64,000 bases of DNA, from positions 25,360,001 through 25,424,000 of the forward strand of contig NC_087250.1 in the NCBI RefSeq assembly GCF_037042905.1, given 5' to 3'. This DNA is from Lytechinus pictus. Its lineage: Eukaryota. Shown one piece after another: positions 2,251-59,574 of this stretch; the stretch's first letter is position 1; every line of letters starts with the position of its first letter. Under the pieces are notes generated by a model that saw only the letters and a list, made by a program, of their open reading frames with translations, made no database searches and was not told where the DNA came from. The position numbers and the translations under genes are program-made.

Positions 2251-2701
2251 AAAAATCATCACCAATTAACACCATATAAATATTTTCAGCCCGGAGTATC
2301 CCTTAAACTAGACAGGTCACTCTCTCAATACGCCATTATTCTTTTCATCCAGGGCAAAAAAAAATATACACACATATTATTCTGGGGGCTACTTGTTGAA
2401 AGCTCACAAGCCAAAATTGGCTATAAAGAGAATTACGTTCACAGTGGACCCTATAGGTCGGAAATCAGGGGCTTTTTAATGGAGGAGGGGGGGGGGGTTG
2501 AATTCGTCCCGAGCCCTCGTATTTCTTTCACTGCTTTCGTGTTAATTCCTTTTCTCTTCTATTCTGTCCAACATCCTTTATTACTCCTGCTTCATAAAGT
2601 CTCATCATAATAACAAATGCACGATTCTTATAAAAATGTTACTATCAGCCAATCAAATCCAATGATTTCAGTGATCTATACTGTTATTGCAAATATGTTA
2701 A

Positions 2702-3272
2702 AGGACAAGTCCATCCCAACGAAAAGTTGATTCGAATTAAAAGAGAACATTCCAAAGAGCATAACACTGAAAATTTCATCAAAATCGGATATAAAATAAG
2801 AAAGTTATGACATTTCAAAGTTTCGCTCAAAAACGGTTATCCTGGTCGGTATGCAAATGAGAGGACTGATGTCATCCACTCACTATTTCTTTTGTAATTT
2901 ATTACATGAAATATTCTAATTTTCTCCTCATTGGCAAGTGAAACAAAGATGAATTCCTCCCTGAGCAGTGGAATTAGCAGTGTTTTAACATTTTGTGGTT
3001 CAAATTGGTCCTTATTGTCAAATCTGTAAAAAATGAAATATTGTATAATTAAAAAAAAAAAAAAAAAAAATACAGTAGTGAGTGGGGGACATCATTGACT
3101 GTCATTTGCATGCCACTGAGTTGTGCATATAACTGTTATGTGAAAAATAAGCGAAACTTTAAAATGTCATACCTTTCTTATTTTACATCCAATTTTGAAA
3201 TTGTCAGCATTATGCTAGTTTGATTTTTCTCTGCTTATTCAAATGAATATTTTTCTAGGGTGGACTTGACCT
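2702..3272. mobile_element. Kolobok-type non-autonomous element, family A (TTAA TSD)
   Basis: TTAA-AGGACAAGTCCA...TGGACTTGACCT-TTAA with long imperfect TIRs; many copies in the window. Confidence 0.8.
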
Positions 3273-3565
3273 TTAATATAACAAGTTTTATGGAATGGGG
3301 CCCTGCTCTTGTACTCATTTCCACTCTCATTCAGCTATTTCAATTTTCTTCTTATCTTTCTTTATCACTTATAAGCCAGTTTCCACTTCTATTCTATTTG
3401 TCCCCGGACCCTGTTTCACAAACCCAAGAATGAGATTAGTCTTGATCTTGGCCAGTCAAACAGCAGGCTGTAGTAGCTTATAACAGTGTCTTGTAACATC
3501 TCTCGCTGACAATGTGGGTCATGAGACTGACTAGGAACCAATGGAAATTTTTTATTCTTTCAAAT

Positions 3566-5333: not shown

Positions 5334-8300
5334 CTGCATGAAAGATTAAAGGGAGAATATGAAGAGAAATTAGGGGACCTAACATTTTGAACATTTGTTG
5401 TAAAATTTTGTATGTGATTTTTATATGTAACTTTTTGATGTCATCACGTTAATTATAATGAAAAATTGTGTGACAAGACATCATCAGCTCCTTTATTAAG
5501 GTCAAGTCCACCCCAGAAAAATTTTGATTTTTATAAAAAGAGAAAAATCAAATAGGCATAATGCAGAAAATTTGATAAAAACCGGATGTAAAATAAGAAA
5601 GTTATGACATTTTAAAGTTTCGCTAATTTTTCACAAAACAGTTATGCACAACTCAGTGGCATGCAAATGAGAGAGTCGATTATGTCCATCACTCACTATT
5701 TCTTTTGTTTTTTATTGTTTGAATTATACAATATTTCATTTTTTACCTATTTGACATCAAGGACCAACTTAACTGAACCATAAAATGTTATAACAATGGA
5801 AATGCCACATGTTCAGGGGGGAATAAAACTTTGTTTCACAGGACAATGAGGAGAAAAATTAAAATATTTCATATTTCATATTATACAAATATACAATGAC
5901 ACTCGAGGATCTGGCTAAAACTATTCGCATCGAAGGAACATCACATAGTACTATTCTCCCGAGGGCCATCGGCCCGAGGGAGAATAGTACCTATGTGATG
6001 TTCCTGAGTGCGAATAGTTTTAGCCTGTTCCGAGAATGGGTCACTGTATATTTGTTTTATATCCCTTCCACTCATACCATTTTACAGCGAAACGATTTTT
6101 AATAAGTCGATATAGAACAATCGTTGAGAAGTTGAGAAAATTATAAGTCTTGCCGTATGGATCGTCTGTTCAGCGAGCGCACCTGGTTAGTGCAGCTCGC
6201 CGAAAGTTTCCCGTGGCATGCAGTGGAGAGTACCGTTTGGCTGAGCAGCGCTCTGCTCGCATCGCGCCGCACAGCTCGCGAATCGCGAGGTAGGGGGGGG
6301 TCAAAAAAACGTATAGTTCACTTTTTCCCTAGGGAAAAAATGGACTATGCGTGATGTCAGCAAGGAAAATGAACTATTTCACGGCAAACGTTTTTCGTAG
6401 TAAAACTATTCCTTTTCTCCTTGTGTACACTCTCAATACAACAATCTTAAGTAAGGGATATAAAATGAAATATAAAAGAAATAGTGAGTGAGTGATGTCA
6501 TCAGTCCCCTCATTTGCATATCGACCATGATGTGCATATAAATGTTTTGTGATATTAAGCGAAACTTTAAAATGTCAAAACTTTCTTATTTTACATCTCC
6601 AATTTTGATTAAATTTTCAGTGTTATGCTTGTTCGATTTTTCTCTTTTTATTCAAATCAACTTTTTGTTGGGGTGGACTTGTCCTTTAACTTACATGTAC
6701 ATACAGCTATTTCGAAAAAATACAAACATTTCACACAACCTGTTTTTCAGTGAAGAACTTTCCTCTCTTTTTTTTAAATGAACCATACTATTTTGGTGAA
6801 ATTGGTATTTTGACCCTAAAAAATGGTGGGGGGGGGGGGGATGGGGGAATGATTTAGCCCCCCTTATGATCTCGGCCATAGATCGTGCGATAACGAAGAA
6901 AAATTGGCAGGCGCGTTACCCATGACATAATCTGCAAAACAGTAAGATTAAATTCAAATCTCATTGCTAATTAATTATGCTAATTTATGCATAAAATCAA
7001 AAGTTTGCTTTACTTAACTAAACTGCTAATTTTGGGTTCAGTCTCTTCATAGGATTCTGGTCAAATGTACCTTAAAAAACTTAAATATCACATTTATTTC
7101 CTTATGCATTTTTATTGTTTTCAAATTTTTCATGAATTTCCGTTTTTCAACATTGTTTTATTTATTGTTTTTTCAATGGAAATCTCCGGATACTTTATTT
7201 TGGCCATTTAAACAAGATGAAATTAATTGATTTTAATAAGATTAAGGAAAAATAATGCATCATTCACAAATTTTGGCGATTCAGTCCCCCTCGACATTTT
7301 TCGCAATAAATCCGCCGCACAAATTTTTTTGATCGCGTCGCTCGCTGACTTTGTACTTTCAAGTCTCATGCAACTTTTGAGACCAAAATTGCAACCCCCG
7401 GGTACGAAATTCTGAAATAAGGCAACATTTCGTAACTGCATGCAGACCCAAAATTACTCAAAAACATGAATTTGTGTACAAATCCAATTCAATTGGTGTT
7501 TTAGCCAAAGTTCATAAATGTATAATTATTTTTCCTTTTACTGATCAAAACCAATTAATTTTGTCTTGTTCAAAGTTAAAATTAAAGTCCCCGACAATTT
7601 CCTTTGAAAAAAATGAATAAAAATGTAAAAAACATAGAAATGCATAAGAAATTTAGAAAACAATAAAATACGTAAGAAAATACATGGGACTTTGACATTT
7701 TTTACTTTAGTACTTTTGATCAGATTTCTTTAAAGAGTCTGCAAACCAAAAATTAGCAATTTAGGGGCAATGTTTAGTTAATTAGAGCAATTTTTTATTG
7801 TACGCATAATTAATTAGAAATGAGATTTTGCGCAGAAATTGAACCCATAATTTTGTAGATTATGCCATGGGTAACGAGAGCGCCAAGTAACATGAGATCG
7901 ACGGCTGAGATCATGGGGGGGGGGGGGGGTCTGATTCAGCCCCCCCCTCCAGTCTATAGGGTTAATAGGTAATGAAGACAAAGGACTTTGACAGTTCAGA
8001 ATGACCAAACCGCCAATGTATCAACTCACCGCTGGGATTTCAATGTCTCCATCGTTGATCTGTTCAATGATATCATGAGGGTTCTGTCCTTCCACGGTGC
8101 ATCCTACAGACTGAGCCGTTCCCAAGACTTCCTTGACTGTTCCCTTGAGCTCACGAGCCATGGAACGCTCCCTCATCGTCCTGGCGATGTCAATGACGGC
8201 GTCGATGGGGATGTTCCCGCTGTGTGAGACTGTACAAAATCAGAAAAACAAAGATTAAATCTTTCATTCAAATCTCATATTTATCTGAATTGCATGAAAT

Positions 8301-20482: not shown

Positions 20483-20752
20483 TCTTTTTGGGGGAGGGGG
20501 GGTGGAAATGCAACTTAATTTTACAAATTTTCATGGGGGTTAATTTGGCAACGACCTCTATACCAAAAAGAGTGGTGTTTTAGATGCAAGAAAACGCCAT
20601 TTTCACACACAGATTTTCAAAAATTGTCCCTACTGTGGGAGGGGGGACACCCCCCTCCCCCCTCGCTCGCTCCGCTCGCTTGGACTCGGTCGCTACGCTC
20701 CCTCGCATACCACCCCAACCCCCCCCTTTATAAAAAGCTGGATCCGCCCCTG
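20316..20752. mobile_element. hAT-type MITE
   Basis: cagaagcggatctag / ctggatccgcccctg; degenerate 8-bp TSD; empty site ggcttcat in the paralog at about 47920. Confidence 0.7.
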
Positions 20753-20786
20753 GGCTTTATTGAACGAATGGTAATTACTTGTAGAC

Positions 20787-20953
20787 TCGTGTATGTGTGT
20801 GTTTGAGTTTTATCAGACGTGTATCAATCAGAAAAGATTTACGTCTGAGACCGACCTTTAACGTCACCATCCGAAAGACGTGAACCTCGAATCTCTGCAT
20901 CAATTTGTAACTTCCCCACAGCTTGGGTTACAGGCGCACGCCACAACGTCCAG
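20787..20953 (-). mobile_element. Short retroposon with a 7SL-RNA-like (Alu domain) head
   Basis: Minus strand CTGGACGTTGTGGCGTGCGCCTGTAACCCAAGCTGTGGGGAAG...GTCTTTCGGATGGTGACGTTAAAGG...(CA)-rich tail; 8-bp TSD TTGTAGAC at 20779-20786 and 20954-20961. Confidence 0.7.
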
Positions 20954-21110
20954 TTGTAGACATTTTAAGTTAGATGTACATGTATATCATTGTTTCAGAT
21001 GACAACGGGGAGAAAGTTATTAGTTTCATATTTCACAAAAGGAAACACAAAGCACATAGTGAGTGTGTGACGTCACCAGTCCCTTCATTTACATATTTCT
21101 GTTGGACAAG

Positions 21111-21270
21111 AGGTGCGTTGCAGAAAGAGTTGCGTTTAAACGCAAGCCCCCCCCAAAAAAAAAAAAATCAATCGCAAGTCCCAAATGCGCGCTGTTGATT
21201 GGTCGAAAATCAAGTTACGCATGATTTGTATAGAGTTGCGATCGATTACAACTCTTTCTGCAACGGGCCC
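21111..21270. mobile_element. Harbinger-type (CWG) MITE
   Basis: cgttgcagaaagagttg / caactctttctgcaacg; empty site gaccaggat in the paralog at about 48085. Confidence 0.7.
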
Positions 21271-23228
21271 CAGGATGTGGAAACTTACAAATGTCCTAAC
21301 TTTCTTATTTTACAGCCAGTTCTTCCGAAATAATCAGTCTATGTTTGCTAGATTTTTTTCTATTATTCAATTCAGCTTTTTTTTAAGGGGGGATGGACTT
21401 GTCCTTTAATTTATATCTAAAGATCTTACAAAAGACTTCACTAATTCCCTGAATAGAATACTGGCATTTCAGTTGAATCCCTATTACTAGTTTTAGATGG
21501 AAATGTAATAATCGATTACAATTTAGCTGTCCCCAAATATTTACAAAATATTCCACAAGAAAACAATGCCTATTTTTTGTTTAGTATTTAGAAAGAAATA
21601 TTTGAGTTTTATTATCATTTATAAAATATGTTTCTTGAAGCATTTATTGTGCTAATAAAATACTTTTACATATTGTATTGTATTGTAAGTGGATTAACGA
21701 TTTTTTAAAAGTCTTTATCAAGTATTTATCATTTTTAAATCTATATTCGTAGTCTTTTTCGAGCTTTTCTAAGCAGTTACTCAATGTTTGACCGGCCTGA
21801 ACACTCGATAGTCTGGGCCTTAAAACAATATTGGAATTTTATTGACAGTCAATATCATTGCATTGTATTCTTAAGCATATTGTTTTAACAGAACAGTTAT
21901 GAAAATCTCAAGCAAATGACAATCGTTTATCTCCCTCACTATTTATTTGGTATTTAATGTTTGAATTATACAACATTTCCTTTTTTATAGATTTGACATT
22001 ATTGACCAACATGACCGAAGCTCGAAATGTTAAAATAAGATGATTTCATATGATGGGGGGGGGGGGGGGGATATGAAACATTGTTTCTCATAAAAATGAG
22101 GAGAACAATTACATATTCAATATTTTACAAAAAATAGTGAGTTATGTCATCAGTTCCCTCATTTGCATAGGCCTACTGCCCAGGATGGTCGTTATCAATA
22201 AAAGTTTTGTGAAATTAAGCTTTTTCAGAATTTTGTTAAAGAATACAAATGTGCAAATTATAGGAAATATTTGTGAATTTATGAATGAAAATTCAGTTTT
22301 GGGAAATTTGTTTTGGATCTGTGGAAACACGTAAACAACTGATATTTAATACAAACTTTCATACGCAATTTGTGATCGTCCTGAATATTGCTTGTGGGTG
22401 CTTCACAAAGCTGTTCGTAAGTTAAGAGCGACTTTATAAGAACGACTGATGATCCTATCTTAGGGCGACCGCACACCTTACGAGTGATCTGCGACCCGAT
22501 TTCAGAATAAAATGTTGTAGAATCTGTGACTATGCTATCATCCTTCTTAGAATAAAAGCGAATTTAATATCTAGTCGCAATGACGTCATAGCAGTCGTAA
22601 GATTGGCTACGATTTGAAACTAATTTGGCCTTTACTCCAAAATAAAGGTTTCCAATCTTTCAAAATGGTTATGTTAGTATTCTTTCAATTAATCTTAACC
22701 TCAAATAAAATGTTGTGTTCCATTCACATTTTCAGAAAAATGAGCAAAGTGCGATTTGTTCTAAAATCGGATCGCAAACAGTCGTAAAGCCCCTTTCACA
22801 ATTGTTGCCAAACAGACTACAACGGCTTGCGACTCGAAATTTTTCCCGTTGTACGACTCGTTGTAGCCGTTGTACCACTTATTGTACGATCCAGATGCGA
22901 CAAAATGGTCGCATCTCGGTCGGGAAAAAAAACCGTGCTGCTCCGATATTTTGAGCGACTGACGCGATGAAAAATAATTGCACGACAGGCAGTACGAGTG
23001 TTGTGCGACTTTGCACGCACTCGTAAGACCCCGAACGAGTGTTGCACGAGTATTTTCATGTCGTACGATGATGCATCCTGTTGTACGAGTCCGTTGTACC
23101 ACCCTAAGACTATTGGAAGACCTGTCTTGCCCCCTTTGCAACGTTGTACGATTTTTTTTCACCCCCAATATAAGCTCGAGAACTCCTGAGCTTTCATCCC
23201 AAATGTCTGGACCATCCATACTGTAAAC

Positions 23229-24530
23229 ATGGCTGCTGCTCGGCCAATAGCTCCTGGGAGGCTCTTGCATTTGCTAAGTCTGAGAAGGCAAATCCAAAAC
23301 GTTCAAGACAGACATGTCATATTGATGGCCTTACTCATCCGTAGACGTCAAAGACATGCAAGGCAAAGAAGAAGGTGGTGGGTCAAACCCTGGATTGAGA
23401 GACGTGTGCTGTTTGGACAGTATGATAATCTGATGACGGAGTTGCAGAGAGAATATCAGGGTGACTTCCTGAACTACATGAGGATGCCACCAGAAACGTT
23501 CCTTGAACTGTTGCAGCGCATCACTCCGAGGATAGAGAAGTCCTATCGCTACCGGCAGCCACTGGATCCTGGGCTCAAACTGGCCATCACCTTGAGATAT
23601 CTTGCGACCGGCAACAGCTACAAAACCATGCAGTATGCCTTCCGTGTTGCCCATAATACCATCTCTCTGTTTATACCAGAGGTGTGCCAGGCCATCATCA
23701 GTGAATACCAAGATGAAGTATTTTCCTGTCCAACTACCCCAGATGAATGGAGAGAAGTGGCACGGACTTACGCTGACAGATGGAACTTTCATCATGTCTG
23801 CGGAGCCTTGGACGGAAAACACGTGGCCATCATAAATCCACCAGGCTCTGGTACGATCTACTACAACTACAAGGGTTTCTACAGCCTCATCCTCTTGGCC
23901 CTAGTTGATGGCAATTACAAGTTCCTCTGGGCTGACGTTGGTAATCCCGGTTCATCATCGGATGCCCAGGTCTTCAACCACAGCCCGCTGAGACGTGGAC
24001 TGGAGAATGGTACTCTTGGCCTGCCAGATCCAGAGCCCCTGCCAGATGATGACCGAGACACCCCTTACTTCTTAATTGGGGACGACGCCCTCACTCTCAG
24101 GACATGGATGCAGAAGCCGTACTCCAACCGTGAGCAGACCGACGAGGAGAGAATCTTCAACTACCGTCTCTCGAGGGCTCTCCGTGTGGTGGAGAACAGC
24201 TTTGGCATCCTTGCCCATCGCTGGAGATGCTTGTTGAGTACCCTACAGCTTGATCCAGAAAAGGCCAGGACAGTCATTATGGCCTGCATGTGCCTCCACA
24301 ACCTAATGAGAGATCGTTTTCCTGGGCTTCAGAACATTGACGTTGACCATGAAGATGAGTTGGGCAACCACATCCCTGGGGCATGGAGAAACGCAGCAGT
24401 TCTGCAGGATGTTGAACGAGTTGGCGGAGGCTACCAGGCAAACAAAGAGGGCAAGAAGCTGAGAACTTACCTGAAGCACTACTACAACAGTCCAGTTGGA
24501 AGCCTGCCCTGGCAACAACACATGATATAG
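23229..24530 (+). CDS. PIF/Harbinger transposase (DDE_Tnp_4, HARBI1/ALP1-like), 433 aa
   Basis: Motifs WVKPWI, RMPPETF, KLAITLRYLATG (HTH), GALDGKH, YYNYKGFYS, GSSSDAQVF, LIGDDA, FNYRLSRA..VVENSFGILAHRW, CMCLHN. Confidence 0.95.
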   Translation: MAAARPIAPGRLLHLLSLRRQIQNVQDRHVILMALLIRRRQRHARQRRRWWVKPWIERRVLFGQYDNLMTELQREYQGDFLNYMRMPPETFLELLQRITPRIEKSYRYRQPLDPGLKLAITLRYLATGNSYKTMQYAFRVAHNTISLFIPEVCQAIISEYQDEVFSCPTTPDEWREVARTYADRWNFHHVCGALDGKHVAIINPPGSGTIYYNYKGFYSLILLALVDGNYKFLWADVGNPGSSSDAQVFNHSPLRRGLENGTLGLPDPEPLPDDDRDTPYFLIGDDALTLRTWMQKPYSNREQTDEERIFNYRLSRALRVVENSFGILAHRWRCLLSTLQLDPEKARTVIMACMCLHNLMRDRFPGLQNIDVDHEDELGNHIPGAWRNAAVLQDVERVGGGYQANKEGKKLRTYLKHYYNSPVGSLPWQQHMI

Positions 24531-25040
24531 ACTGCCACTTGGCGCACTACTTGGGATACAGCACAGACTCTGCCATAAAAATGGCATGTAAACTTCGATC
24601 ATGATTTTGTGGAATGAATCATTTCAAAGTAGAAATGAATGACCATGTCAACAGTTATTTTAAACATACATTACTTTTACATCGAAAGGTAGTTTGAAAT
24701 TTAAAAAGTTAACTCTCCTTAATAACATGTGTTTGAAATAAAATAATGAAGGAGAACATGTTTGAAAAAATGTGATTTATGAGAATAAAAAAGATGTACA
24801 GATATAACATATTTTCTTTTGTCATTAATCATGTTGTTTTAAACATGATATATATTTTTCAAAGACATTTTATTAACGATAATTAATTGTATTGACTATG
24901 TTAATGTTTAAAATAAAGTTTGAAATAAATGTTCCAAAATGGGTCAGTTGTAAATTAAATTGAGAGAGTTCATCAAGTAACAATAACAATCCAAACAAAA
25001 GTTCACTGTTCATTTTCTTTATTTGACAAGTCTGACAAGT

Positions 25041-26256
25041 TCAAATGGATGATGATTGATGTGACGGCGCTGTTGCTGCCTCCTTGATTTAGTGGAATGG
25101 ATCATTTCAAAGAAGAAATGAATGATCATGTCAACATTTATTTAAAAAAAAAATTTCTTTGACAATGAAATGTTTGAAATAATAAACGTTGATTCTCCTT
25201 TAATAGCATTTATTTGAAAGGTGGTCCGCCCGATCCTGGTAGCGGCTCACCAAGTTGAAAGTGTCCCTGGTGAACTCTCGCCAGAGGGGTCTTGGGAGTG
25301 GGCGGGCGGCCTGAAGCATCCATTCTAGCCAGGCCTGCCTCTCGTCAGCGCCTTGGGTGCGTGCCGCATCCACCTGGCTCCGGATGGCCGTCTGCTCGGT
25401 GGATGTTCTGATGAATTCCAGGAGGGCCTTGTCCTCATCGGTTGGCGGCCCCCTCTTCTGCCTCTTTTTGGGAGGTGCAGCCCCCTGGCTGGAGACTTGG
25501 TTGGAGCTGGGTGCTTGGCTGGCATCTGGACCCTCCTCATCTAAACCCTCTTCGTCGGAGGCGGCTTCAGTAATTCGGCCACTGAGGTGGCCCAGTTGGC
25601 AGCCCTGGGACCGATGGACTATGTGCTTCGTCAGAAAACCAAGGTTGTTATTGACCCATCTCTGCCTGGGGTAAGGACGATGGCCTTCTGACCATTCTTC
25701 TTTCCAGCGGTCTTCATCTTCCCCAGGATGGTCCTCTGGCTTTTATACCATGTCGGCCACTGAAAATATACAAAATGTAGAAGCAAGAAATTAGTCAACA
25801 TCCAAAAAATTGGCATGTTTAACTAATAAACATCATCAATAAATCGGAATGTGCATATTTTTCAGCTACTACTTACCGGTGACTCCCAGCTTTTCCGCCA
25901 TCTCCATGTACTTGCGCTCCTTCTTCTTAGAGTTTTTGAAGTCCACCTTGCTCTTGTCGTAGATGAACTCATTGTCAGCGAAAAACTCGGCCAGCTCCTG
26001 CTCCATGGCTTTGGTGATACCGCAGGTAGCATGGCCACCTGTCACGTTGTTCTCATCACTGGCGGCGGCTGGTGGATCTTGGCCCCCTTCCTGCTGCATT
26101 TCATCATCCTCGGTCTGGGCTTCACCAAATTCATCACCCTCATCACCAGCTATGACAGAAGCAGTAGCTTTCTCCTCGGCCACGGGTATAGGCTGGGGCC
26201 CTTCCTCCTCATCAGGCTGATTTTTCCTCTTTTTCCTTGACTTCTTTGGGGGCCAT
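25041..26256 (-). pseudogene. Harbinger second gene (MADF/Myb-like DNA-binding protein), two exons, frameshifted
   Basis: Reconstructed MAPKKSRKKRK...EQELAEFFADNEFIYDKSKVDFKNSKKKERKYMEMAEKLGVT | intron 25876-25760 | TWYKSQRTILGK...RQRWVNNNLGFLTKHI...ERQAWLEWM..LPRPLWREFTRDTFNLVSRY; needs three frameshifts. Confidence 0.8.
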
Positions 26257-26966
26257 GCCGATGTTTGTATTTTGGTTGTGTCTTGTTCACTGTAGCAGCG
26301 TCTCGTCAGGCATCAGCGGTTGTAATGAAGAAAGTCGCATCGCGTGTCGTATTTATAGGCCAACACCTCGCGCGACAGGTGGTGCGGTGTGTCGCACAAT
26401 GGGTCGTAGCCTTGTACGATCGGTTGTAGTAGTCGTACAACGGGTCGCTAGGTCGCGCGACATATGGCGCTACAAAACGTATATGTCGTGCGACTTGGTC
26501 GCATCATCGTTCAACCGTTGCAGCCGTTGTACGACTGTTGCACCCGGAAACATGAAAATAATCGCACGATTACGTCTCACGACTGTTGTATCCTGGTGCA
26601 GTGGTCGTTCACCTCTCGCACGATTTTATATATTGCTTGCGACTCAAAGACAACACTTCTACAACAGGACGGAAAAAATATTTTCGAAAAAAAAATTATC
26701 GCACTAGTGAGGCGCCAATTGTGAAAGGGGCTTTAGGTGTGCGGTGGTCTTAACGTGCTTAACCCTCGCCAATAATTATAAAATTTGCAACAAGAAAGGA
26801 TCACCAGTCATTCTTACAGTCGCTCTTAACTTACGAAAAGCTTTATGAAACGGCCCCCAGGGTCCCGTTGCTATCAAATGGTAACTACCGAGGTAACGCT
26901 GATCAACAGCCAGTCAAGGATTTCATACAAGTTACCTTTGGTTGGCAAAATTACCATAATGGTAAC

Positions 26967-27345
26967 TTGATTGATTGATTGATTTTATTCGTCTAAAATA
27001 TCACAGGAGATTACAATGAAATTGAAGAATACCTTGACAGGATAGCCCATGAAAGCCGAAAGGCTTATTTCCAATGGGATAGTTAAATACAAAAAGTATA
27101 AACTGCGACAAATACTGGAATAAGGTACAAACAAAATAAATAAATACATATTCATCAGTGAAATACTTTTTTTGCAAAACATCTGAAGCACCCAATAATC
27201 TTCCTAATATATAAAACAAGATTATATTTTAACATACCCTGTATTATCTACAATACTAGAAACCAACTGTAGAAAATGTGTGAATTTTACTGGTAATACT
27301 GTTCTCAAGTAGCTTCCAGTTTGGGGTGCTTCTTTAATTCACTCT
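26967..27345 (-). mobile_element. LINE 3' end (CR1/L2-like) with AATAAA-(ATCA)n tail
   Basis: Minus strand ends aataaaatcaatcaatcaatcaa; FKSELKKH-like C-terminal remnant near 27350; interrupts a MITE that is intact in the paralog at about 49560-49680. Confidence 0.55.
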
Positions 27346-28586
27346 TAAATAGTAATTTCTCCGTTAACCTTAACTAATTGTGTTATAGTACTTTTCTTCT
27401 TGTTAGATTGTAATAGTTGACTAAAATACCTTGTATCCCTTTCTCCACTTTCGTACCATGTCGCACGAGACCGAATTTTAATACCTTCATTAATGTAATC
27501 GTAACTGTCTGCAAGTTCTTTTCTTTTCTTTTCTATCTTTTTAATCAATTCTTCATCTACTGAATTTACGAAACTACCTTCTAAACATTCCAATTCCTTT
27601 TCGAGAGATTCTTTTTTCATTTTTTTTTCCTTAGCCAGTTTTTTCGAAAAAGTTCTTGTGAAAGACATTATTTTCATTTTCAAATAATCCCATACAACTC
27701 TTCTATCTTTAACTTCTGTCTTTATTTTCTCCTTTAATGTAAGTATTTCTGTTTTCCTCTTTTTCACATATTCTACATTACCACAAAGGCTATTATTAAA
27801 TTTCCAATAAGAACCATTCTTTTTACGCATTTCCTTATCAGTTTTATCATACAGGAACAAAAAAATAGCTGAATGGTCAGGAGCTATAGATGGTAAAATT
27901 TTGCACCTGATAACAACATTTACAAATTCGTCTGATATTAGCCAATGATCTAATCTGCTTTGCATAAACGGATTATTTTTAGTGAAGGTAAATTGTCTTT
28001 TCAATGGATTTCTCTCTCTCCATATGTCTATTAATTGTAGTTCCTCCATGAAATTTTCTACTTCTTTACTAACGTTGTCATGTATTTTTTGTTTCACTGT
28101 TCCATTATAATCTAATTCAGAATTCATAATATTATTAAAATCTCCTCCCATTAAAACAGGTTTATTACAACTATTAATTTTATTCAATTTTATAAGCATA
28201 TCCTTTAAAAATTTTATTTGATGATTTTCTTTATCCCTCGTCGGTAAGTAAACATTACAAAGGACCATTCTATGTCCTTGGATTTCACAATCAATGAGTA
28301 TGTATCGCCCTTCGTCATCTTGTTTTATATTTATAAGTTTAAAGTCTATTGAGGTTTTGATAAGAATGAGTACTCCTCTGCTATGATTTGATCCATGACT
28401 ATAGTAACATGACCCATCCCACCCAGAACTCCATCTATCCTCTACATCTTTTGTACTATACGTCTCCTGTAAAAAAATTACATCCCCTTTTTCTTTGCAC
28501 CATAAAAATATTCGTCCCCTTTTCGCGCATTCTCTTATTCCTCTAACATTTAAGGAAACAAAATTACAATTTAAACATCTATTCAT
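27345..28586 (-). CDS. Tx1/L1-clade LINE ORF2 N-terminus (APE endonuclease), truncated before RT
   Basis: SLNVRGI, DVIFLQETY, HSRGV, NVYLP, MGGDFN, LIDIWR, SRLDHWLIS, DHSAI, then YWKFNNSL, WDYLK, IRSRATWYESGERDTRYF. Confidence 0.9.
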   Translation of the reverse strand: MNRCLNCNFVSLNVRGIRECAKRGRIFLWCKEKGDVIFLQETYSTKDVEDRWSSGWDGSCYYSHGSNHSRGVLILIKTSIDFKLINIKQDDEGRYILIDCEIQGHRMVLCNVYLPTRDKENHQIKFLKDMLIKLNKINSCNKPVLMGGDFNNIMNSELDYNGTVKQKIHDNVSKEVENFMEELQLIDIWRERNPLKRQFTFTKNNPFMQSRLDHWLISDEFVNVVIRCKILPSIAPDHSAIFLFLYDKTDKEMRKKNGSYWKFNNSLCGNVEYVKKRKTEILTLKEKIKTEVKDRRVVWDYLKMKIMSFTRTFSKKLAKEKKMKKESLEKELECLEGSFVNSVDEELIKKIEKKRKELADSYDYINEGIKIRSRATWYESGERDTRYFSQLLQSNKKKSTITQLVKVNGEITI

Positions 28587-29899
28587 AAAGAAAATCTAAA
28601 AAGATCATTCTACCATTTTTATTGTATAAAAACTTTAAGATTTTCACTACGTTATTTATAGGGAGAGTGAGGAATAGACATACCAACATATTTCCTAGTG
28701 TAACTGCAGTACATAGTCCAATGGTAAACTCTAATTTATTGCGCCATTGTTCAAAACAAAAATAAATGTCTATCAATTCGAGTATTACTATCCCTTCCAT
28801 GTAGAACATTATCTCTAAGAATCCTAAAAAAGGTGCTCGTAATACCTGCAAGTAAAAAAAGAAGGGAAGGAATCCCATCTCTACGACCTTCTCCAAAGCA
28901 ACACTCCCTCACAGCTCACCGTTCTTTACAGGTTGCTGTAGTATTTCCAAGAATAATAATCTACCCCTAATTGTTGTCTTTTTTCTTTGTTATAATCTCA
29001 TTGAATTTAAACGAAATAGCTGTAAATAAAATCAATAATGAAAAAAAGAAAAACTGACATGCATTCAATCAGCATATACAGCATTAATAAGTTAAGTTTT
29101 AAACTTACACATACTAAGCAAGTAATTTTTTATGTTAATAATAACCTATCCCCCACAAAACAATACAAGTTAAATAATGGTACATGTTTAAATGAAACAC
29201 AACCAAACAAAGTCCCAAAGCATTCCAAATCCCCTTGTTTCTATAACTAAAAAAACAACTTTCAAACAGTCCTGAGATTCACATTTTGGTAACCAAACAC
29301 CTAATCCCTATATAACAATATACCAAAGTCATGATATTGGATTCCATATGAGCATATTAAAGGTGTTACACTTTAAGGAATTAAATCACACTATTCCCAT
29401 CATTAATGCCAGGAATAAAGAACGAAATACTTATGTAACAATAATTTCCACTGAAGGTAATGCATTTATGTACCTAATCATTGGTTCAAAACAACAAACC
29501 TTGCATTTTGGGACATTGTATTGAGAATAACTTCCTTTTGAATATTTAGTTCTATCTTGTACAAAAGGAACACCTGGTATTCTTTTCTTTCTTAAAATCT
29601 AAGCAAACAAACACTTGGAGCAAACTATTACAATAATAGGCACGTTCCACAAGTAAGCATTTGTAACATATAAGTATTCAAGTACCATATTATCACATGA
29701 CAAAATCCTAGCCTAAGGTTGTTGAACCGTCGTCAGAATTATGATTTTTCAAATTCCATTATACTCAATACATATATTGCAGAATTGCAGTAATCAAGAT
29801 GTTGTCCTTAAATTCTAAGAAAATCTCAAGAATTGTGATTTTTTCATATTACTGCATATACAAAAAAAAAATAAAGATCCAAAATGTTACTTCTTTGTT

Positions 29900-34115: not shown

Positions 34116-34795
34116 CATTGATTATAGTGTATCTGGTAATCATTTTCTACAAACTTCTTTATATTTGACATGACTACCCAATATGTTAATTGATATTGAA
34201 ATTGTTTGGCATATTATAAATACTTTATTACTTTGTACCTTTATGCATTTGTTCATAATTGTAACGTTTTGCAATGTAGGATATGAACTGAATGAATTTA
34301 ATTAATGTTATTAAAAACAGAATTCTTCATAATTTCAAACAATGTTGATCGAAGGTTCATAAATATATAAGTAAATGAACTTCATGAAGCACGAGTTTTT
34401 CCCCCTTTTATTTTTTTGGCATCAGTTTCTGATTATGATTTCATAAAAACATTATTGATAATATTTTAGATTGTTCAACAGGTACTAAATGAGAGGAAGA
34501 AGAAAAACAAGAAGAAGAAGAGGAAGAAGAAAAAGAAGGATATGATGACGAAGAAGGAGAAGAAGAAGAAAAAGGAGACCTTTGTGTCATTGTGACCAGC
34601 AGATATTACCGGCATCATAATACTAAATGGCTAATTACCTGTTATTACCTTTAATATAATTAACTGAGACATGTGAGAAGAGCCCTGATTTTGAACGGCA
34701 ATTAAACCTCCATCCTCTTATTTACTTGAGGGTACACTGTATGTTTTATGCGACAATTAAAAGGTGTCTGATTTCGTGGAAATAATCTTTATCAA

Positions 34796-35394
34796 AGGAC
34801 AAGTCTACCCCAACAACAAGTTGATTTGAATAAAAAGAGAAGAATCCGACAAGCATAACACAGAAAATTTCATCAAAATGGGATGTAAAATAAGAAAGTT
34901 ATGGCATTTTAAACTTTTGCTTAATTTCACAAAGCAGTTATATGCACATCCTGGTCAGTATGCAAATGAGGAGACTGATGACATCGTCCACTAATGTTTT
35001 TTTTATTATATGAAATATGAAATTTTCTATTTTTATTCTCATTGTCAAGTGAAACAATGATTAATTCCTCCTGAACATGTGGAATTAGCACTGTTTAATA
35101 CACTATGGTTCAGTCAAGTTGGTCCTAATTGTCAAATCTGTAAAAATGAAATACATGTATTGTATAATTCAAACAATAAAAAACAAAAGAAATAGTGAGT
35201 GACATCATCGACTCTCTCATTTGCATGTCACTGAGTTGTGCATATCCCTGTTTTATGAAAAATGATAAGCGAAAATTAAAAATGCCACAACTTTCTTATT
35301 TTACATTCGATTTTGATGAAATTTTCAGTGCTCTGCTAGATTGATTTTTCTCTATTCATTCAAATCAACATTATTCTTGGGGTGGACTTGACCT
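34796..35394. mobile_element. Kolobok family A copy (duplicated at 37111-37715)
   Basis: aggacaagtc...ggacttgacct-TTAA. Confidence 0.8.
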
Positions 35395-38300
35395 TTAACA
35401 GAGATGCACCGAGGTCACAGCAAAGGGGACGAACAAAAACTTTGAGTAAAAGTCAATAGATGGGTATACTATTTCCCAAAGGATATACATTTTAAGGACT
35501 GTTTCTATTTTTTTATTCGATAGTGTTTTTTTAACAGATCAAGATTAAGATTTGAATGTGGGAGGCGTATGAGATATGGGTGAGGGTGATCTTGCCCCCT
35601 CCCTCTCTAGATGGACCAAAACCTCGTTGGCGCCTATGCATCGTAGGGTCAGTATTAGGGTATAGTAAGTTAGCCACCTTTCGCAAATGCTTTCCTTGGT
35701 TTACATTGTCTATTGTATATATTTCTCTAACATTTTGGTTTGATTTTATTGACTTTGTATCTTTATGAATTTGTTCTTCTTGTTACGTTTTGCAATGTAA
35801 GATTTAAAGTGAATGAATTTGACGAATGCTATGTACAATAAATAATACTTGATAATTTTAAACAAAGTTGATCAAATGGTCGTAAATGGATGCAGCACGA
35901 GTTTGATCCCCTTTTGTAATGTTTGGCACCAGTTTCTGATAACGATTTCTTAAATTATTCATCGTATTATCAATATACATGTATAGATATAGTTAATTCA
36001 GCAGGAACAAAAAGGAGAGAAAGAAAAAGTAAAAGGCAGACGAAGAAAATAAATGGAGGAGGAGGAGGAGGAAGAAGAAGACCTATGTGTGATTGCAACC
36101 ATCATATTGCCAGCATCTTTATACTAAACAGGGGCTGCGGAAACGGAAGGGGGGCTTCAGCCCCCCCCCCTCCCCCCACACCTTTTCCCAAACCATGTAA
36201 AACACGTAAAATAACGTTTTGTATGTTAGTATGTATTTTTCCTTCCTTCATTTCTCATGATGTCGTGTGTGCGTGCGTATTGTTTTGTGTTCAGGTATTC
36301 TGAAGTGCAAAATGTTGTTTTGTATAGTGTCTATGTTCGTTGTTTTCTTTTGTGTGCATGTGGATGGAGCCCTCGATTCCCGTTTTATAATTACTCTTTT
36401 ATTGTAATTTCATTGATTAGTGTATATGAAAATCATTTTACTACAAAGTTCTTTATACTTGAATATATATAATATGACATGACCTCCCAATATGTTAATT
36501 GATATGATTTTTTTTGGGCATATTATGAATACTTTATCACTTTGTACCTTTATGCATTTGTTCATATTGTAACGTTTTGCAATGTAGGATATGAACTGAA
36601 TGAATTTAATGAATGTTATTAAAAACAGAATTCTTCATAATTTCAAACAATGTTGATCAAAGGGTCGTAAATATATAAGTAGATGAACTTCATGAAGCAC
36701 GAGTTTTTCCCCCTTTTATTTTTTTGGCATCAGTTGCTGATGATGATTTCATAAAAACATTATTGATAATATTTTAGATTGTTCAACAGGTACTAAATGA
36801 GAGAAAGAAGAAAAAACAAGAAGAAGAAGAGGAAGAAGAAAAAGTAAAAGAAGAAGATGATGACGAAGAAGGAGAAGAAGAAGAAAAAGGAGACCTTTGT
36901 GTCATTGTGACCAGCAGATATTACCGGCATCATAATACTGAATGGCTAATTACCTGTTATTACCTTTAATATAATTAACTGAGACATGTGAGAAGAGCCC
37001 TGATTTTGAACGGCAATTAAACCTCCATCCTCTTATTTACTTGAGGGTACACTGTATGTTTTATGCGACAATTAAAAGGTGTCTGATTTCGTGGAAATAA
37101 TCTTTATCAAAGGACAAGTCTACCCCAACAACAAGTTGATTTGAATAAAAAGAGAAGAATCCGACAAGCATAACACAGAAAATTTCATCAAAATGGGATG
37201 TAAAATAAGAAAGTTATGGCATTTTAAACTTTTGCTTAATTTCACAAAGCAGTTGTATGCACATCCTGGTCAGTATGCAAATGAGGAGACTGATGACATC
37301 GTCCACTCATGTTTTTTTTTTATTATATGAAATATGAAATTTTCTATTTTTATCCTCATTGTCAAGTGAAACAATGATTAATTCCTCCTGAACATGTGGA
37401 ATTAGCACTGTTTAATACACTATGGTTCAGTCAAGTTGGTCCTAATTGTCAAATCTGTAAAAATGAAATACATGTATTGTATAATTCAAACAATAAAAAA
37501 CAAAAGAAATAGTGAGTGAGTGACATCATCGACTTTCTCATTTGCATGTCACTGAGTTGTGCATATCACTGTTTTATGAAAAATAATAAGTGAAAATTTA
37601 AAATGCCACAACTGTCTTATTTTACATTCGATTTTGATGAAAATTTCAGTGCTCTGCTAGATTGATTTTTCTCTATTCATTCAAATCAACATTATTCTTG
37701 GGGTGGACTTGACCTTTAACAGAGATGCACCGTGGTCACAGCAAAGGGGACGAACAAAAACTTTGAGTAAACGTCAATAGATGGGTATACTGTTTCCCAA
37801 AGGATATATATTTTAAGGATTTTCAAATTTTTTTATTTGATAGTGTTTTTTAACAGATCAAGATTAAGATTTGAATGTGGGAGGCGTATGAGATATGGGT
37901 GAGGGTGATCTTGCCCCCCTCCCTCCCTAGATGGACCAAAACCTCGTTGGCGCCTATGCATCGTAGGGTCAGTATTAGGGTATAGTAAGTTAGCCACCTT
38001 TCGAAAATGCTTTCCTTTACATTGGCTATTGTATATATTTCTCTGACATTTTGGTTTGGTTTTATTTACTTTGTATCTTTATGAATTTGCTCTTGTTACA
38101 TTTTGCAATGTAAGATTTGAAGTGAATGAATTTGACGAATGATATGTACAATATATTATACTTAATAATTTTAAACAAAGTTTATCAAAATGGTCGTAAA
38201 TAGTTGAAGCACGAGTTTGGCCCCCTTTGGTAATGTTCAGCACCAGTTTCTGATAGCGATTTCTTAAAAATATTAGTAATAATATTATTCATTATGTATA

Positions 38301-38557
38301 GAGATAGTTAATTCAGCAAGTACAAAAAGGAGAAAAAGAAAAGTAAAAGGCAGAAGAAGAAGAAAATAAAAGGAGGAAAAAGAAGACATATGTGTGATCG
38401 TAACAAGCATATTGCCAGCATCATTATACTAAACAGGGGCCACGGAAACGCCCCTCGCCGCCCCACACTTTTTTCCATTTCTATGCAAAAAATACACGTA
38501 AAATGACAATATGATTGTATTTTTTGCATGGTCAGCCGCTACATTGGACTCAGACCC

Positions 38558-41500
38558 TGTTACACCCACAAATGTAATAATCGCCCACAAATGTAATAAC
38601 GCCCACAAATGTAATAACACTTTACCCACAAATGTAATAACGCCCACAAATGTAATAACACTTTACCCACAAATGTAATGATTTCACCCACAAATGTAAT
38701 AATGCACTTTACCCACAAATGTAATAATTTTTGATCGCCCACAAATGTAATAATGACTTTACCCACAAATGTAATAAATTTGAAGGGATTTTTGGCAAAT
38801 CTGTTCTAAACTAAAATCCTATAGTAATTCGTTCATATAGCACAAAAGTGCAAAGTCTTTTTTCCAGACCCGGTTAATAAAACATTATAGTACAATTCCA
38901 AAGTCTTTTTCCAGACCCGGTTGTTTCAAAATTATAATATACGTCCAAAGTTTTTTTTCCAGACCCGGTTAATTAACAAATTATAATGCAAGTCCAAAGT
39001 CTTTTTTCCAGACCCGGTTGTTTCAAAAATTATGATATACGTCCAAAGTCTTTTTTCCAGACCCGGTTGTTTCAAAAATTATAATATACGTCCAAAGTCT
39101 TTTTTCCAGACCCGGTTAATTCAAAAATATAATATACGTCCAAAGTCTTTTTTCTAGACCCGGTTGTTTAAAAAATTATGATATACGTCCAAAGTCTTTT
39201 TTCCAGACCCGGTTGTTTCAAAAATTGTAATATACATCCAAAGTCTTTTTTCCAGACCCGGTTGTTTCAAAAATTGTAATATACGTCCAAAGTCTTTTTT
39301 CCAGACCTGGTTAATTCAAAAATTATAATGCAAGTCCAAAGTCTTTTTTCCAGACCCGGTTGTTTCAAAAATTATAATATAAGTCCAAAGTCTTTTTTCC
39401 AGACCCGGTTAATTAAAAAATTAGAATATAAATCCAAAGTCTTTTTTCCAGACCTGGTTGTTTCAAAAATTATAATATACGTCCAAAGTCTTTTTTCCAG
39501 ACCCGGTTAATTAAAAAGTATAATGCAAGTCCAAAGTCTCTTTTCCAGACCCGGTTGTTTCAAAAATTATAATGTAAGTCCAAAGTCTTTTTTCCAGACC
39601 CGGTTAATAAAACATTATAGTACAATTCCAAAGTCTTTTTTTCCAGACCCGGTTGTTTCAAACATTAGAATATAAGTCCAAAGTCTTTTTTCCAGACCCG
39701 GTTGTTTCAATAATTATACTATACGTCCAAAGTCTTTTTTCCAGACCTGGTAGTTTCAAAATTATTATAAGTCCAAACTAAGATAATGATATTCTAGTTG
39801 AATAAAATGAGAATCGAGCTCAGTCTTTTCTCCAGACCCAGTCAATTAAAACTGGTGGAAATGTAACAAAGACCCCAACTCTTTTGTAAATGTTAAATAA
39901 CATGGAAATATAGCGTAGTCTTTCATCCAGACCCAGATCTTTCAAATAACAAATGAATAATAATAATAATAAATTATTAATAATAAAAAAGCAAACAACG
40001 ACCCACGATCCTATTTATGTTGAATAACATGGAAATATAGCGTAGTCTTTCCTCCAGACCAAGATCTTTCAAATATCAAATGAATAATAATAATAATAAA
40101 TTAGTAATAATAATAAATTAATAATAATAAAAAAAGCAAACAAAGACCCACGATCCTATTTATGTTGAATATCATGGAAATATAGCGTAGTCTTTCCTCC
40201 AGACCCAGACCTTTCAAATAAGAAATGATGAATAATGATAATAAATTAGTAATAATAAAAAAGCAAACAAAGACCCACGATCCTCTTTATATTGAAAACA
40301 TGGAAATATAGCGTAGTCTTTCCTCCAGACCCAGTTATAAAAGTCATTTAAAACACAACAACAACAAAACAAAGACCCTGCAATCTTATCATCATTGAAT
40401 AACATGGAAATATGGTGTAGTCTTTCCTCCAGACCCAATTATTTCAAAATAATCAAAATCATTAGAAAAGAATAACAGAATCTAAGGCCCAACTATCCTT
40501 CAAACTAAGAACCTTCAATAAATAAAAGTTTAGAGAGTTTTCTTTATTCCAGACCTTGTCATTTAAAAAATAAGATAAATGAAATCCTCATGACTAAGAC
40601 TCAATCATATTCTTGTGCCTGTTCAACATGAATAAGATGATTGGGGGAGTATTTCATCAACATTTATGTCCGACAAGTTGTCAGATCTGACAACTGTTCT
40701 TGATGTTGATTAGCTAAGAAGCAGTGCTACCAGTGTCGGATAAAACGTCAGACAACTCCTTTCATGAAATGCTCCCCGGGCTCTAAGTTTTGATGTTGTT
40801 TTTATTATAAATTTCTTTGCCTGGAAGAAAAAATGAATGTTTAATTGCATCATTTATTATAGGATGTTAGGCTGGAAGAGGGTTAAATATTTTTTGTTCT
40901 GTTTTTTTTTTAATAAACTGGTCTGGTCAAATTAAGTATGCGTTATCACAAGGGTTTTATAGTTTGGAAGATGCTGGGGTCTAAGTTTTAAGATTAATGT
41001 TTTGCTTAATTTGTATTTTAAAGAGAACTGGGTGAGGGGTAAAGACAACACTCTAAGCCCAAGCATTTTAAGTTGGTTTAATTTTGAAGATTGGTCTTAG
41101 CTGTGATTTTTTTTCAATATTTGATTATATTTTAAATAACCGGGTCTAGACGAAAGACTAAGCATAATACTCGTGTTATTCCACAAGAATAAGAATATGA
41201 CAAAGTCATATTCTTACTCTATTTTAAGATTGTTTAAATCATTTTTAAATTACTGGGTCTGGAATAAAGACAACGCTCTAAACATGTGCTTTTCTACATG
41301 CATGGTCTTAATTTGGAGGATTCAAATTCAAATTCAAAATTTATTTATTTCACTTCCATCAAACAAAAACAAATTGTATACCATATATAAACATAAATAT
41401 TTGTATCCGTTGCAAACAAAATTAATGATACATATGTTTTGAAAAAAACACTTAAACAATTTCGGCAACACATTGTAGGTTTTAAATATGTATACTAATT

Positions 41501-42958
41501 TTTCAATAGAAATTAAATTAAGATGGAAATGGGGGGACCCACTAAAAAGCAATGCTTGTACAACGTGGGCCCCTCAAAAAATAGATAACACAACAAATAA
41601 CAAAATAACAAAGTATAAATACAGATAATCAAATGAGAAAAAATAAATACATGAGAGGGATTGTTGGTTCTAAGATTCGTTTTGGGGGTTGGGTTTTATT
41701 GATTTTTTATTTCTTGAAATAATTGTGTCTGGAGGAAAGTCGATCTTCGACAATCGGTCTTCATGTTATATCACAGTAATTAGATTATTGGGTATTCGTT
41801 TTAGAATATTTGTAAAAACTACTTTATTTTTTCAAATAATAACCAAGTCTGGAGAAAGGATGTTTGCTTTACCCATGCATTATTACAATGTTTTGTAGGG
41901 GTCGTAGTATTATTTTTTTAAAATGGGTGTGGGGTAAAGACATATTTTTTTACTGGGTGAAACTTTGGAAAATTGGTCTTAGATTTGAAGTTTTTTAATT
42001 CATTTTTTAATAGCCGGGTCTGGAGGAAAGACTTTGGACTTATATTGTAATTGTTTAATTATCCGGGTCTGGAAAAAAGACTTTGTACTTTGGTGCTATA
42101 TGAACGCATTGCTATAGGGTTTATTTTTTAGTTTTAAGTAACCGGGTCTGGAGAAAAGACTACGCTTGATTCTCAATTTACTCTTAGTGCATATATTCAC
42201 AATATACGCCGTATAAGTTGAAACAACAACAAAGACATTAATTCCGCCAGTTTTAATTAACTGGGTCTGGAGAAAAGACTAAGCTCGATTCTCTTTTTTT
42301 TTCCACTGAAATATCATTATCATATCTTAGTTTTGACTTATATTATAATTTTTGAAATAACCGGGTCTGGAAAAAGACTTTGGACTTATATTATAATCTT
42401 TTAAACAACCGGGTCTGGAAAAAAGACTGGACTTATATTATAATTTTTTAAACAACCATGTCTGAAAAAAAGACTTTGGACTTGCATTATAATTTTTGAA
42501 TCAACCGGGTCTGGAAAAAAGACTTTGGACTTATATTATAATTTTTTAAACAACCGGGTCTGAAAAAAAGACTTTGGACTTGCATTATAATTTTTGAATT
42601 AACCGGGTCTGGAAAAAAGACTTCGGACGTATATTATAATTTTGAAACAACCGGGTCTGGAAAACGTCTGGTAAAAACACTTTGCACTTTTGTGCTATAT
42701 GAACGAATTACTATAGGATTTTATTTTAGAACGGATTCGCCAAAAATCCCTTCAAATTTATTACATTTGTGGGTAAAGTCATTATTACATTTGTGGGCGA
42801 TCAAAAATTATTACATTTGTGGGTAAAGTGCATTTTTACATTTGTGGGTGAAATCATTACATTTGTGGGTAAAGTGTTATTACATTTGTGGGCGTTATTA
42901 CATTTGTGGGTAAAGTGTTATTACATTTGTGGGCGTTATTACATTTGTGGGTGCAACA
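38558..42958. mobile_element. 4.4-kb foldback element with modular tandem-repeat TIRs, TGT..ACA ends and 5-bp TSD
   Basis: GACCC-TGTTACACCC...GGGTGCAACA-GACCC; outer CCCACAAATGTAAT repeats, unique inverted spacer and inner about 42-bp TCCAGACCCGG repeats, mirrored at both ends. Confidence 0.88.
40643..40777. mobile_element. Small MITE (second copy about 54696-54863)
   Basis: gggg..tttcatcaa..tccgacaagttgtcagatctgacaac...ctttcatgaaa-gctcccc present in both copies. Confidence 0.7.
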
Positions 42959-46596: not shown

Positions 46597-46903
46597 GTAA
46601 GTATATTGTTGTTTTTTTAAGCATATTTGAGGCGTTCACTCCAAAAGAATATTTACGTCGTAAAGTGTTTTAAGAAATGAGAATATAATATTTATTGATT
46701 ATTAGTAATATCATTTGTATGAGCGTCTTATACATATACACTCAGATGCAACATAAAGACAGTCGCACCATGATTTTTAAACGGGGGGGGGGGGGGGGGG
46801 TTGCAAATGGAGGGCAATGGATCATTTATGCTTATTTCATATAACAAGCACAAGCTAAAATTTCTAATATAGGCCCTACTGACTTGAAAAAGGGACTTGT
46901 TAA

Positions 46904-47475
46904 AAGACAAGTCCACCCCAACAAAAAGTTGATCTGAGTAAAAAGAGAAAAATCCAACAACCATATCACTGAAAATTTCATCAAAATCGGATGTAAAACA
47001 AGAAAGTTATGACATGTTAAAATTTTGCTTAATTTACAAAATAGTTTCAAGCACATCCTGGTCGGTTTGCAAATGAGGAGACTATCATCCACTCGTTTCT
47101 TCTTTTCATTTTATTATATGAAATAATCATATTTTTTTTCCTTATTGTCAAGTAAAACAATTAATTCCTCCATGAACATGTGGAATTAGCATTGTTTAAT
47201 ACTATTTGGTCTTTATTGTCAAATCTTTAAAAAAATCAAATATTGTTTAACTCAAACAATAAAAAACAAAAGATACAGAGAGGACATCATCAACTGTCTC
47301 ATTTTCATGTCATTGAATTATGAATATGAATATCACTGTTTTATGAAAAATAAGCAAAATGTTAACATCTCATAACTTTATTATTGATCTGATTTTTGAT
47401 GAATTTTTAAGCATTTTGCTAGTTTGATATTCTCTATTTATTCAAATCAACATTATTCTGGGGTGGACTCTACCT
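46904..47475. mobile_element. Kolobok family A copy
   Basis: TTAA-aagacaagtccacccc ... gggtggactctacct-TTAA. Confidence 0.8.
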
Positions 47476-47859
47476 TTAAGGAATGTTTGCAAGGAATCAT
47501 AACACCTCATCAAATAAATAATTTTATGGTGATTCGTGAGTTGTAATTGTAAAAGATATTCTGAGATGATAGTTGGCCGCTGTTTGTAAACACATTTTGT
47601 AGCCATGAACAGGATGGGTATCTGACTTAACAATTGATGTGAGCGCAAAGTGCAAGCTGAATAGCACTTTTTAAAATTATGAACATGCAGGATGCATACC
47701 GGTACCTTGCTAAAACAAAAAATGACAACTTGAATCACAAGAAGAATAATTTGTGCATATTGACTTGAACACTGGATTTTTAAAGTGGGATTGAAGAGCC
47801 CCCGTGAAGCACATCTCTTCTCCCCCATCCCTCCATTTTCGCCACAATATTGTATGAAT

Positions 47860-59291: not shown

Positions 59292-59574
59292 AATTATAGG
59301 CTACAGTACACTCTGCATTATGCATCATGCGAATAGAAAACAAAAAAACAAAGGGTCTGTGCCTTCAGACTAGGCGGAACTCATCTCGGTGAAGCGCTAG
59401 ATGGCTACAACAAAAAATACCCAAATATAATAGGAGAAGAAATAATAATTGAAAAGAATGTTAGATGAAATGTACTATGTTTATTTAATATTTACGAAAC
59501 AAAAAAAAGGTTGGTACACGTGTTGTAATGATTGATTAAACAATTCTCTGTATTGGTCATAAAGCACTGCTTAA

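Follow-up and report, generated by a model that had tools for sequence, protein, structure and literature searches.

An abundant sea-urchin SINE with an apparently 7SL RNA-derived head and a body shared with tRNA-headed relatives

SINEs headed by a piece of 7SL RNA have been described as limited to Euarchontoglires, hagfish and the shrew mole (PMC7245038, PMC10886601, PMC13023118). An insert in a 64,000-nucleotide stretch of Lytechinus pictus DNA (the window), whose 5′ end an earlier note had likened to the start of the 7SL Alu domain, raises the question of whether a sea urchin carries such an element and, if so, how it came about. Our answer is that the insert is very probably a worn copy of an abundant SINE, in which a 7SL piece is likely to have replaced, within a sea-urchin lineage, the front part of a SINE that had a tRNA head and a Deu-like body. 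The features on which this reading rests are collected in Table 1.

The earlier note had described a minus-strand insert bounded by an exact 8-bp target-site duplication (TSD), and this was borne out, TTGTAGAC being present on both sides and enclosing 167 bases; among 3,000 random 167-bp intervals of the window, 28 had a flanking repeat of at least 8 bp when 5 bases of slack were allowed on each side. The size of the element itself was refined from 167 to 168 bp. Its 5′ end is most likely 20954 rather than 20953, because position 1 of the Rfam model described below falls there and two foreign contigs (record 6 of run X1 and record 32 of run X9) stop matching at the same base, with the consequence that one base is common to the element and the TSD. 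The right flank of the interrupted host repeat matched about eight places in the window, and the SINE was missing from all five of the other host-repeat copies that were aligned across the site. The paralogue at 47935-47950, cited earlier as lacking the insert, does lack it, yet does not represent a precise pre-insertion site: the segment is shorter by 181 nt, which corresponds to the insert, one TSD and a further 6 nt of target, and of the 8 TSD letters it retains just the final 4-5. Short (168 bp), interspersed, flanked by an 8-bp TSD and ended by a simple repeat, (AC)n, the element is in these respects built like a SINE. Directly to the left of the host segment, at 20680-20752, lies another high-copy repeat, present in all four of the public runs compared below.

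Table 1. Features of the insert and its surroundings, in window coordinates
Feature	Position	Strand	Basis or remark
SINE copy, 168 bp	20787..20954	-	boundaries, paralogue comparison and family letters from run contigs
Target-site duplication, tail-side copy	20779..20786	+	repeat TTGTAGAC
Target-site duplication, head-side copy	20954..20961	+	20954 common to element and TSD
Older dispersed repeat interrupted by the SINE	20753..21119		88% to 47943-48100
7SL-derived head, corresponding to the Alu-domain 5′ part (closing helix, two hairpins, UGUAA linker)	20910..20954	-	RF00017
A-box-like stretch within the 7SL head	20941..20950	-	7 of 10 letters as in the human 7SL A box (PMC7245038), by eye
Linker between head and B box	20894..20909	-	further 7SL or tRNA-SINE sequence
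Pol III B box	20883..20893	-	family form GGTTCGA..CC is canonical; this copy has a damaged box
Body block resembling the start of the Deu/Nin domain, also present in the tRNA-headed sisters	20848..20880	-	alignment by eye
Predicted 3′ stem-loop, candidate LINE recognition signal	20813..20848	-	folding compared with shuffles
(AC)n-type tail	20787..20802	-	read from the sequence

Within the 64-kb window, neither blastn nor nhmmer found a second copy of the insert (the four other nhmmer rows had E values of 4-8). We also compared the window with public runs X1, X6, X9 and X14, from organisms A, B, C and D, respectively. Part of the region 20500-21300 was present in 20 of the 24 runs listed, none of which contained half of it; as none of the listed pieces covers the locus from end to end, the runs may derive from other individuals or species. 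In X1, the summed contig depth, which is not equivalent to copy number, ranged from 2.1 × 10^5 to 9.6 × 10^5 over 20792-20945 and was 25,609 in the bin at the 5′ end and 26-79 in the flank at 20960-21015, and the majority letter at each of positions 20848, 20892 and 20927 was carried by 103-105 distinct contigs. Dividing about 40,000 per base at the 5′ end by the 20-52 found for long flanked contigs gave a rough estimate of 800-2,000 copies. Body and head were spanned by four of the eight X1 records shown (records 4-7), three of them in contigs of 568-1,176 nt, and the joined form was present in X9 as well (record 29). Thus, neither of two outcomes that had been named in advance as refuting the proposal, a single copy or a 7SL part and a body that never co-occur, was observed. 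None of the listed runs is recorded as RNA; assembled contigs carry no information on the start or strand of an RNA, and X9, which is only guessed to be RNA, has no bearing on pol III transcripts because its contigs run on into the flanks. We consider it highly probable that the element belongs to a genuine SINE family whose head derives from 7SL. A chimeric retrocopy that arose only once or rarely, by template switching between a 7SL fragment and a SINE body, would suit the lone copy in the 64-kb window but is scarcely credible: the majority letter is found at positions in the head, the B box and the body in no fewer than 103-105 different X1 contigs, and head and body are spanned by several long ones.

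The head (20954-20910) aligned with positions 1-44 of the Rfam Metazoa_SRP model (RF00017), scoring 20.6 bits with an E value of 0.00047 when 96 nt were searched and 0.0037 when 2,001 bases were searched. On the whole window the E value was 0.12, and the match ranked twelfth by bit score among 15 rows, behind clearly spurious ones; scores of 20.6-22 bits are far below the cut-off of the model (70 bits), and Rfam at the gathering score returned no rows within the window. Modest when taken alone, the match is convincing because model position 1 coincides with a 5′ end that is defined independently by the TSD and by the two foreign contigs. Counted by eye, 32 of the 44 consensus letters (73%) and 11 of the 14 model pairs are kept, as is the UGUAA linker, and the 3-bp closing helix is still paired though two of its three pairs are altered on both sides. 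Two pairs of the first hairpin are mismatched at places with no listed family difference, and one of the three broken model pairs, in the second hairpin, is mended by the family majority letter at 20927 (492,460 of a depth of 493,187, in 103 X1 contigs). RNAfold gave the head no Alu shape (z = +1.15; 181 of 200 shuffles folded equally well), and the whole element folded no better than its shuffles (z = +0.55). SINEBase asks of a head that it be at least 60% identical to tRNA, 5S or 7SL across 60 nt or more; here the identity is 73% over 44 positions, and loose contig ends suggest that comparison with the host gene might extend the match to about 60 nt. Metazoa_SRP was the best of the three Rfam rows on the 96-nt head region, and the second was mir-1268, which is itself Alu-derived. 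A scan with the head pattern returned no hits in viral genomes and none in prokaryote genomes.

If the head were instead a diverged tRNA 5′ half, or an unrelated sequence that resembles 7SL by chance, the low bit score and the rank of the match behind spurious rows at the whole-window E value would be as expected. We regard this as very unlikely, however, since the match starts at model position 1 exactly at the end of the element and includes a closing helix with paired changes, no tRNA or 5S row appeared on the 96-nt head region up to an E value of 10, ARAGORN found no tRNA genes in the window, and two metagenome contigs that carry the same body behind a tRNA-like head (L001 and L002, described below) yielded no SRP row. 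The likeness to the start of the 7SL Alu domain that had first been noticed by eye is therefore supported, and a head closer to tRNA or 5S than to 7SL, which would have spoken against it, was not what we found. We concluded that the 5′ head is, as judged from its sequence, derived from 7SL RNA in the manner that defines SINE1, with a score below the gathering threshold.

The linker did not match L001 or L002 above shuffles, and 11 of its 16 letters resembled, by eye, the loose end of three X1 contigs that share the head (agreement, 0.65). If the head-sharing contigs are native 7SL genes, the 7SL part might extend to the B box, which we offer as a lead only. The B-box-like GATTCGAG reported in the earlier note is placed as it was described, with the qualification that the box is of the tRNA type and is damaged in this copy. 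The majority letter at 20892 (T>C; 365,632 of a depth of 368,213, in 104 X1 contigs, with a loose end behind 20883), together with those at four further places, yields the canonical box. Relative to the family majority, this copy also lacks about 7 nt, 4 near 20884 and 3 near 20836. Because the family majority letters improve the element in its head pair, B box and stem-loop, the copy in the window has probably decayed, is silent and no longer serves as a source.

Behind the B box, the block GTCTTTCGGATG..GACGTTAAA, which had been compared with the start of the Deu domain, was located as claimed, but the likeness is confined to roughly the first 33 nt of a domain of some 140 nt. Over 20880-20848, 25 of 33 columns were alike by eye in a comparison with AmnSINE1_HS (Fig. 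S4 of PMC7245038), and a GACGT.AAA block may follow. As read from its letters, the body does not contain the central domain of about 130-140 nt that defines DeuSINEs and fits a short, Nin/Inv-like 5′ part. The predicted 3′ stem-loop folded better than its shuffles in this copy (z = −3.54), in L001 (z = −4.52) and in L002 (z = −3.77), with 0 of 200 shuffles equaling it in each case. Its outer helix is invariant among the three sequences, with no covariation, and three majority letters near 20836 extend its inner part. The 5′ strand of the stem-loop may itself be Deu-like, and a LINE origin of the structure is a candidate only. At 305-345 of L002, a 9-nt duplication lies in the loop and the stem is kept. 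Rfam also proposed a 7SL 3′-end alignment at 20823-20850, which we rejected as 7SL sequence, since it lies in the body shared with the tRNA-headed L001 and L002.

The CA-rich tail was found where the earlier note had put it. It is an (AC)n repeat behind a stem-loop rather than the poly(A) that characterizes elements mobilized by L1, and no partner LINE with a like 3′ tail was found within the 64-kb window. The three Strongylocentrotus purpuratus SINE-LINE pairs tabulated in PMC3747384 all name CR1 or L2 partners, which is our sole ground for guessing at a CR1/L2-type LINE; by this analogy, we would give such a partner an even chance. A 416-codon frame at 27345-28595 on the minus strand is, by eye, L1/Tx1-type endonuclease-like and shows no tail likeness to the SINE in the window.

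The same body also occurs behind heads of the tRNA type. In X6 and X14 it was present at high depth, while the depth was 0 at 20890-20903, and the loose ends read as a tRNA T-arm. A scan with the body pattern gave two hits in metagenomes, both tRNA-headed, and none in viral or prokaryote genomes. These two contigs, L001 and L002, contain complete sister elements with the same body and tail type behind a tRNA-like head: the body scored 143 and 99, respectively (shuffle maxima, 28 and 29), whereas the head scored 14 and 12, within the shuffle maxima of 26 and 22. The tail is (AC)n in L001 and (AACC)n in L002, and no TSD was seen by eye at either. Because two other organisms and two metagenome contigs thus carry this body behind a tRNA-type head, the simplest reading of a comparison that is neither rooted nor dated is that the 7SL head likely replaced a tRNA head in the lineage of organisms A and C. 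In X1 the 7SL form seems to be dominant, since the depth of the linker is as high as that of the body.

Some contigs carry the head without the SINE body. Fifteen in X6 cover the head alone and have no listed difference except at 20927, and three in X1 part from the head at 20920 and then run, by eye, like the 7SL consensus. We infer that both groups are likely to be native 7SL genes, in which case the mismatched pairs of the first hairpin would be features of the host 7SL RNA and not decay. In X14, one low-depth contig over 20904-20927 parts from the head as a native 7SL gene would. The summed depth in the same run was 55,000-65,000 on the head alone (20928-20957), with almost none at 20890-20917, and organism D possibly holds numerous fragments of the 7SL 5′ part, or else another, independent repeat with a 7SL head.

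In its construction, the element resembles SINE1-1_EBu of the hagfish Eptatretus burgeri (PMC7245038), which arose as a chimera when an older, tRNA-headed SINE acquired a 7SL head and whose tail is likewise a short repeat rather than poly(A); 26 of the first 30 head letters are equal by eye. However, the head of SINE1-1_EBu comprises 96 nt from the 5′ part of 7SL, including a B box of its own, together with the Alu-domain 3′ strand, and the element has an RTE-derived body and TSDs of about 17 bp, whereas the sea-urchin element has 45 nt of 7SL (perhaps about 60), no 3′ strand, a tRNA-type B box, a Deu-like body and an 8-bp TSD. Alu, B1 and the shrew-mole Urop (PMC13023118) are similar in carrying the 5′ Alu domain at the 5′ end, with internal pol III boxes, but a central deletion has left them with both Alu-domain strands, and they carry a poly(A) tail for L1; here there are a foreign body, a stem-loop, an (AC)n tail and an invertebrate host. 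The one stretch that might be taken for the 3′ strand of the Alu, B1, Urop and SINE1-1_EBu type is body shared with the tRNA-headed sisters. A hybrid 7SL/tRNA head has a precedent, in that a tRNA origin or a dual 7SL and tRNA origin has been reported for the leftmost unit of tree-shrew Tu types II and III (PMC13023118), although Tu units, compared here by description only, sit in dimeric and trimeric SINEs of the Euarchontoglires lineage. DeuSINEs (SINE2-3_SP, AmnSINE1; PMC3747384, PMC4758252, PMC7245038) begin their body alike and are known to have swapped a 5S head onto a tRNA-headed element, but the present element has only about the first 33 nt of their domain and a 7SL head (SINE2-3_SP, which is characterized by a CR1-derived tail, being compared by description only).

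In the open literature searched, we found no invertebrate 7SL-derived SINE, and as far as that literature goes the element is a variant of SINE1 and the first invertebrate case. The family could be real and yet already catalogued in Repbase or Dfam, as SINE1 or as a tRNA-SINE; S. purpuratus does have a known DeuSINE, SINE2-3_SP (PMC3747384), considered here by its description. We hold this to be improbable, as PMC10886601 (2024) and PMC13023118 (2026) limit 7SL-derived SINEs to vertebrates and we found no literature linking Lytechinus variegatus with an Alu SINE. The three known vertebrate origins all keep both Alu-domain strands, and this element has only the 5′ part, which raises the question of whether the 5′ 46-nt domain, sufficient for one round of Alu retrotransposition, is also what evolution keeps.

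How such an element might spread can be sketched from established SINE biology. Intact copies would be transcribed by pol III from the A box in the 7SL piece and the tRNA-type B box about 48 nt downstream. A LINE reverse transcriptase, by analogy most likely of the CR1/L2 group, would recognize the 3′ stem-loop and (AC)n tail and copy the SINE into new sites by target-primed reverse transcription. To these steps we add a proposed one, in which the first 45 nt would take up the fold of the Alu 5′ domain and bind SRP9/14, bringing the transcript to ribosomes. In PMC11760393, a 46-nt 5′ Alu domain is reported to bind SRP9/14 and to support one round of retrotransposition in HeLa cells but to be unable to spread for want of a B box. 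The engineered minimal Alu domains SA46 and AY46 of that work contain about the same 5′ piece of 7SL and, lacking a B box, need an outside promoter, whereas in the natural element the piece is followed by a B box. On this model, the use of SRP9/14 by the sea-urchin SINE could go either way.

The strongest competitor is that the 7SL piece serves as a promoter only, an A box having been acquired in a chance head swap with no role for SRP9/14, and that the LINE uses the 3′ stem-loop, just as it would in the tRNA-headed sisters. We put this at just short of even, about as likely as docking through SRP9/14. The sisters in X6 and X14 are abundant without a 7SL head, both forms share the stem-loop, no stable fold is predicted for the head, and the 5S-for-tRNA head swaps of Deu-SINEs took over a promoter function (PMC4758252). 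Against it, what has been retained is not just the A box but the entire 5′ domain, and a pair that lies outside the A box is preserved by the family letter at 20927; simple inheritance from a young 7SL copy, however, accounts equally well for both. The existence of tRNA-headed sisters that share the body and tail makes the head and the tail separately testable. In its fullest form, our reading is that a sea-urchin lineage independently invented an Alu-like element by placing a minimal, SRP9/14-binding 7SL piece on a stem-loop-type SINE, that ribosome docking through SRP9/14, with a LINE other than L1 as partner, let this element supplant the tRNA-headed parent, and that organism D may hold a second 7SL-headed repeat; taken as a whole, we advance it tentatively, as a proposal somewhat more apt to be wrong than right.

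The window contains several other repeats. The SINE is inserted in a relative of a MITE-like family of about 600 bp with inverted halves, members of which lie at 2688-3278, 5491-5889, 34794-35398, 37109-37719, 46902-47479 and 59571-60094. A Harbinger/PIF transposon occupies 22402-26849, with inverted ends at about 22402-22461 and 26792-26849. Its plus-strand transposase frame of 446 codons (23190-24530) has its best match, at 98% identity, in a Lytechinus variegatus protein from a cluster of 81 members, with the next at 74%, a result that points to Lytechinus or a close relative as the likely host; further minus-strand frames lie at 25200-26312, and related ends occur near 49169-49664. A 2-kb tandem duplication with 93% identity spans 34116-38450, and a long array of units of about 49 bp extends over 38836-40442, with an inverted relative at 42000-42950.
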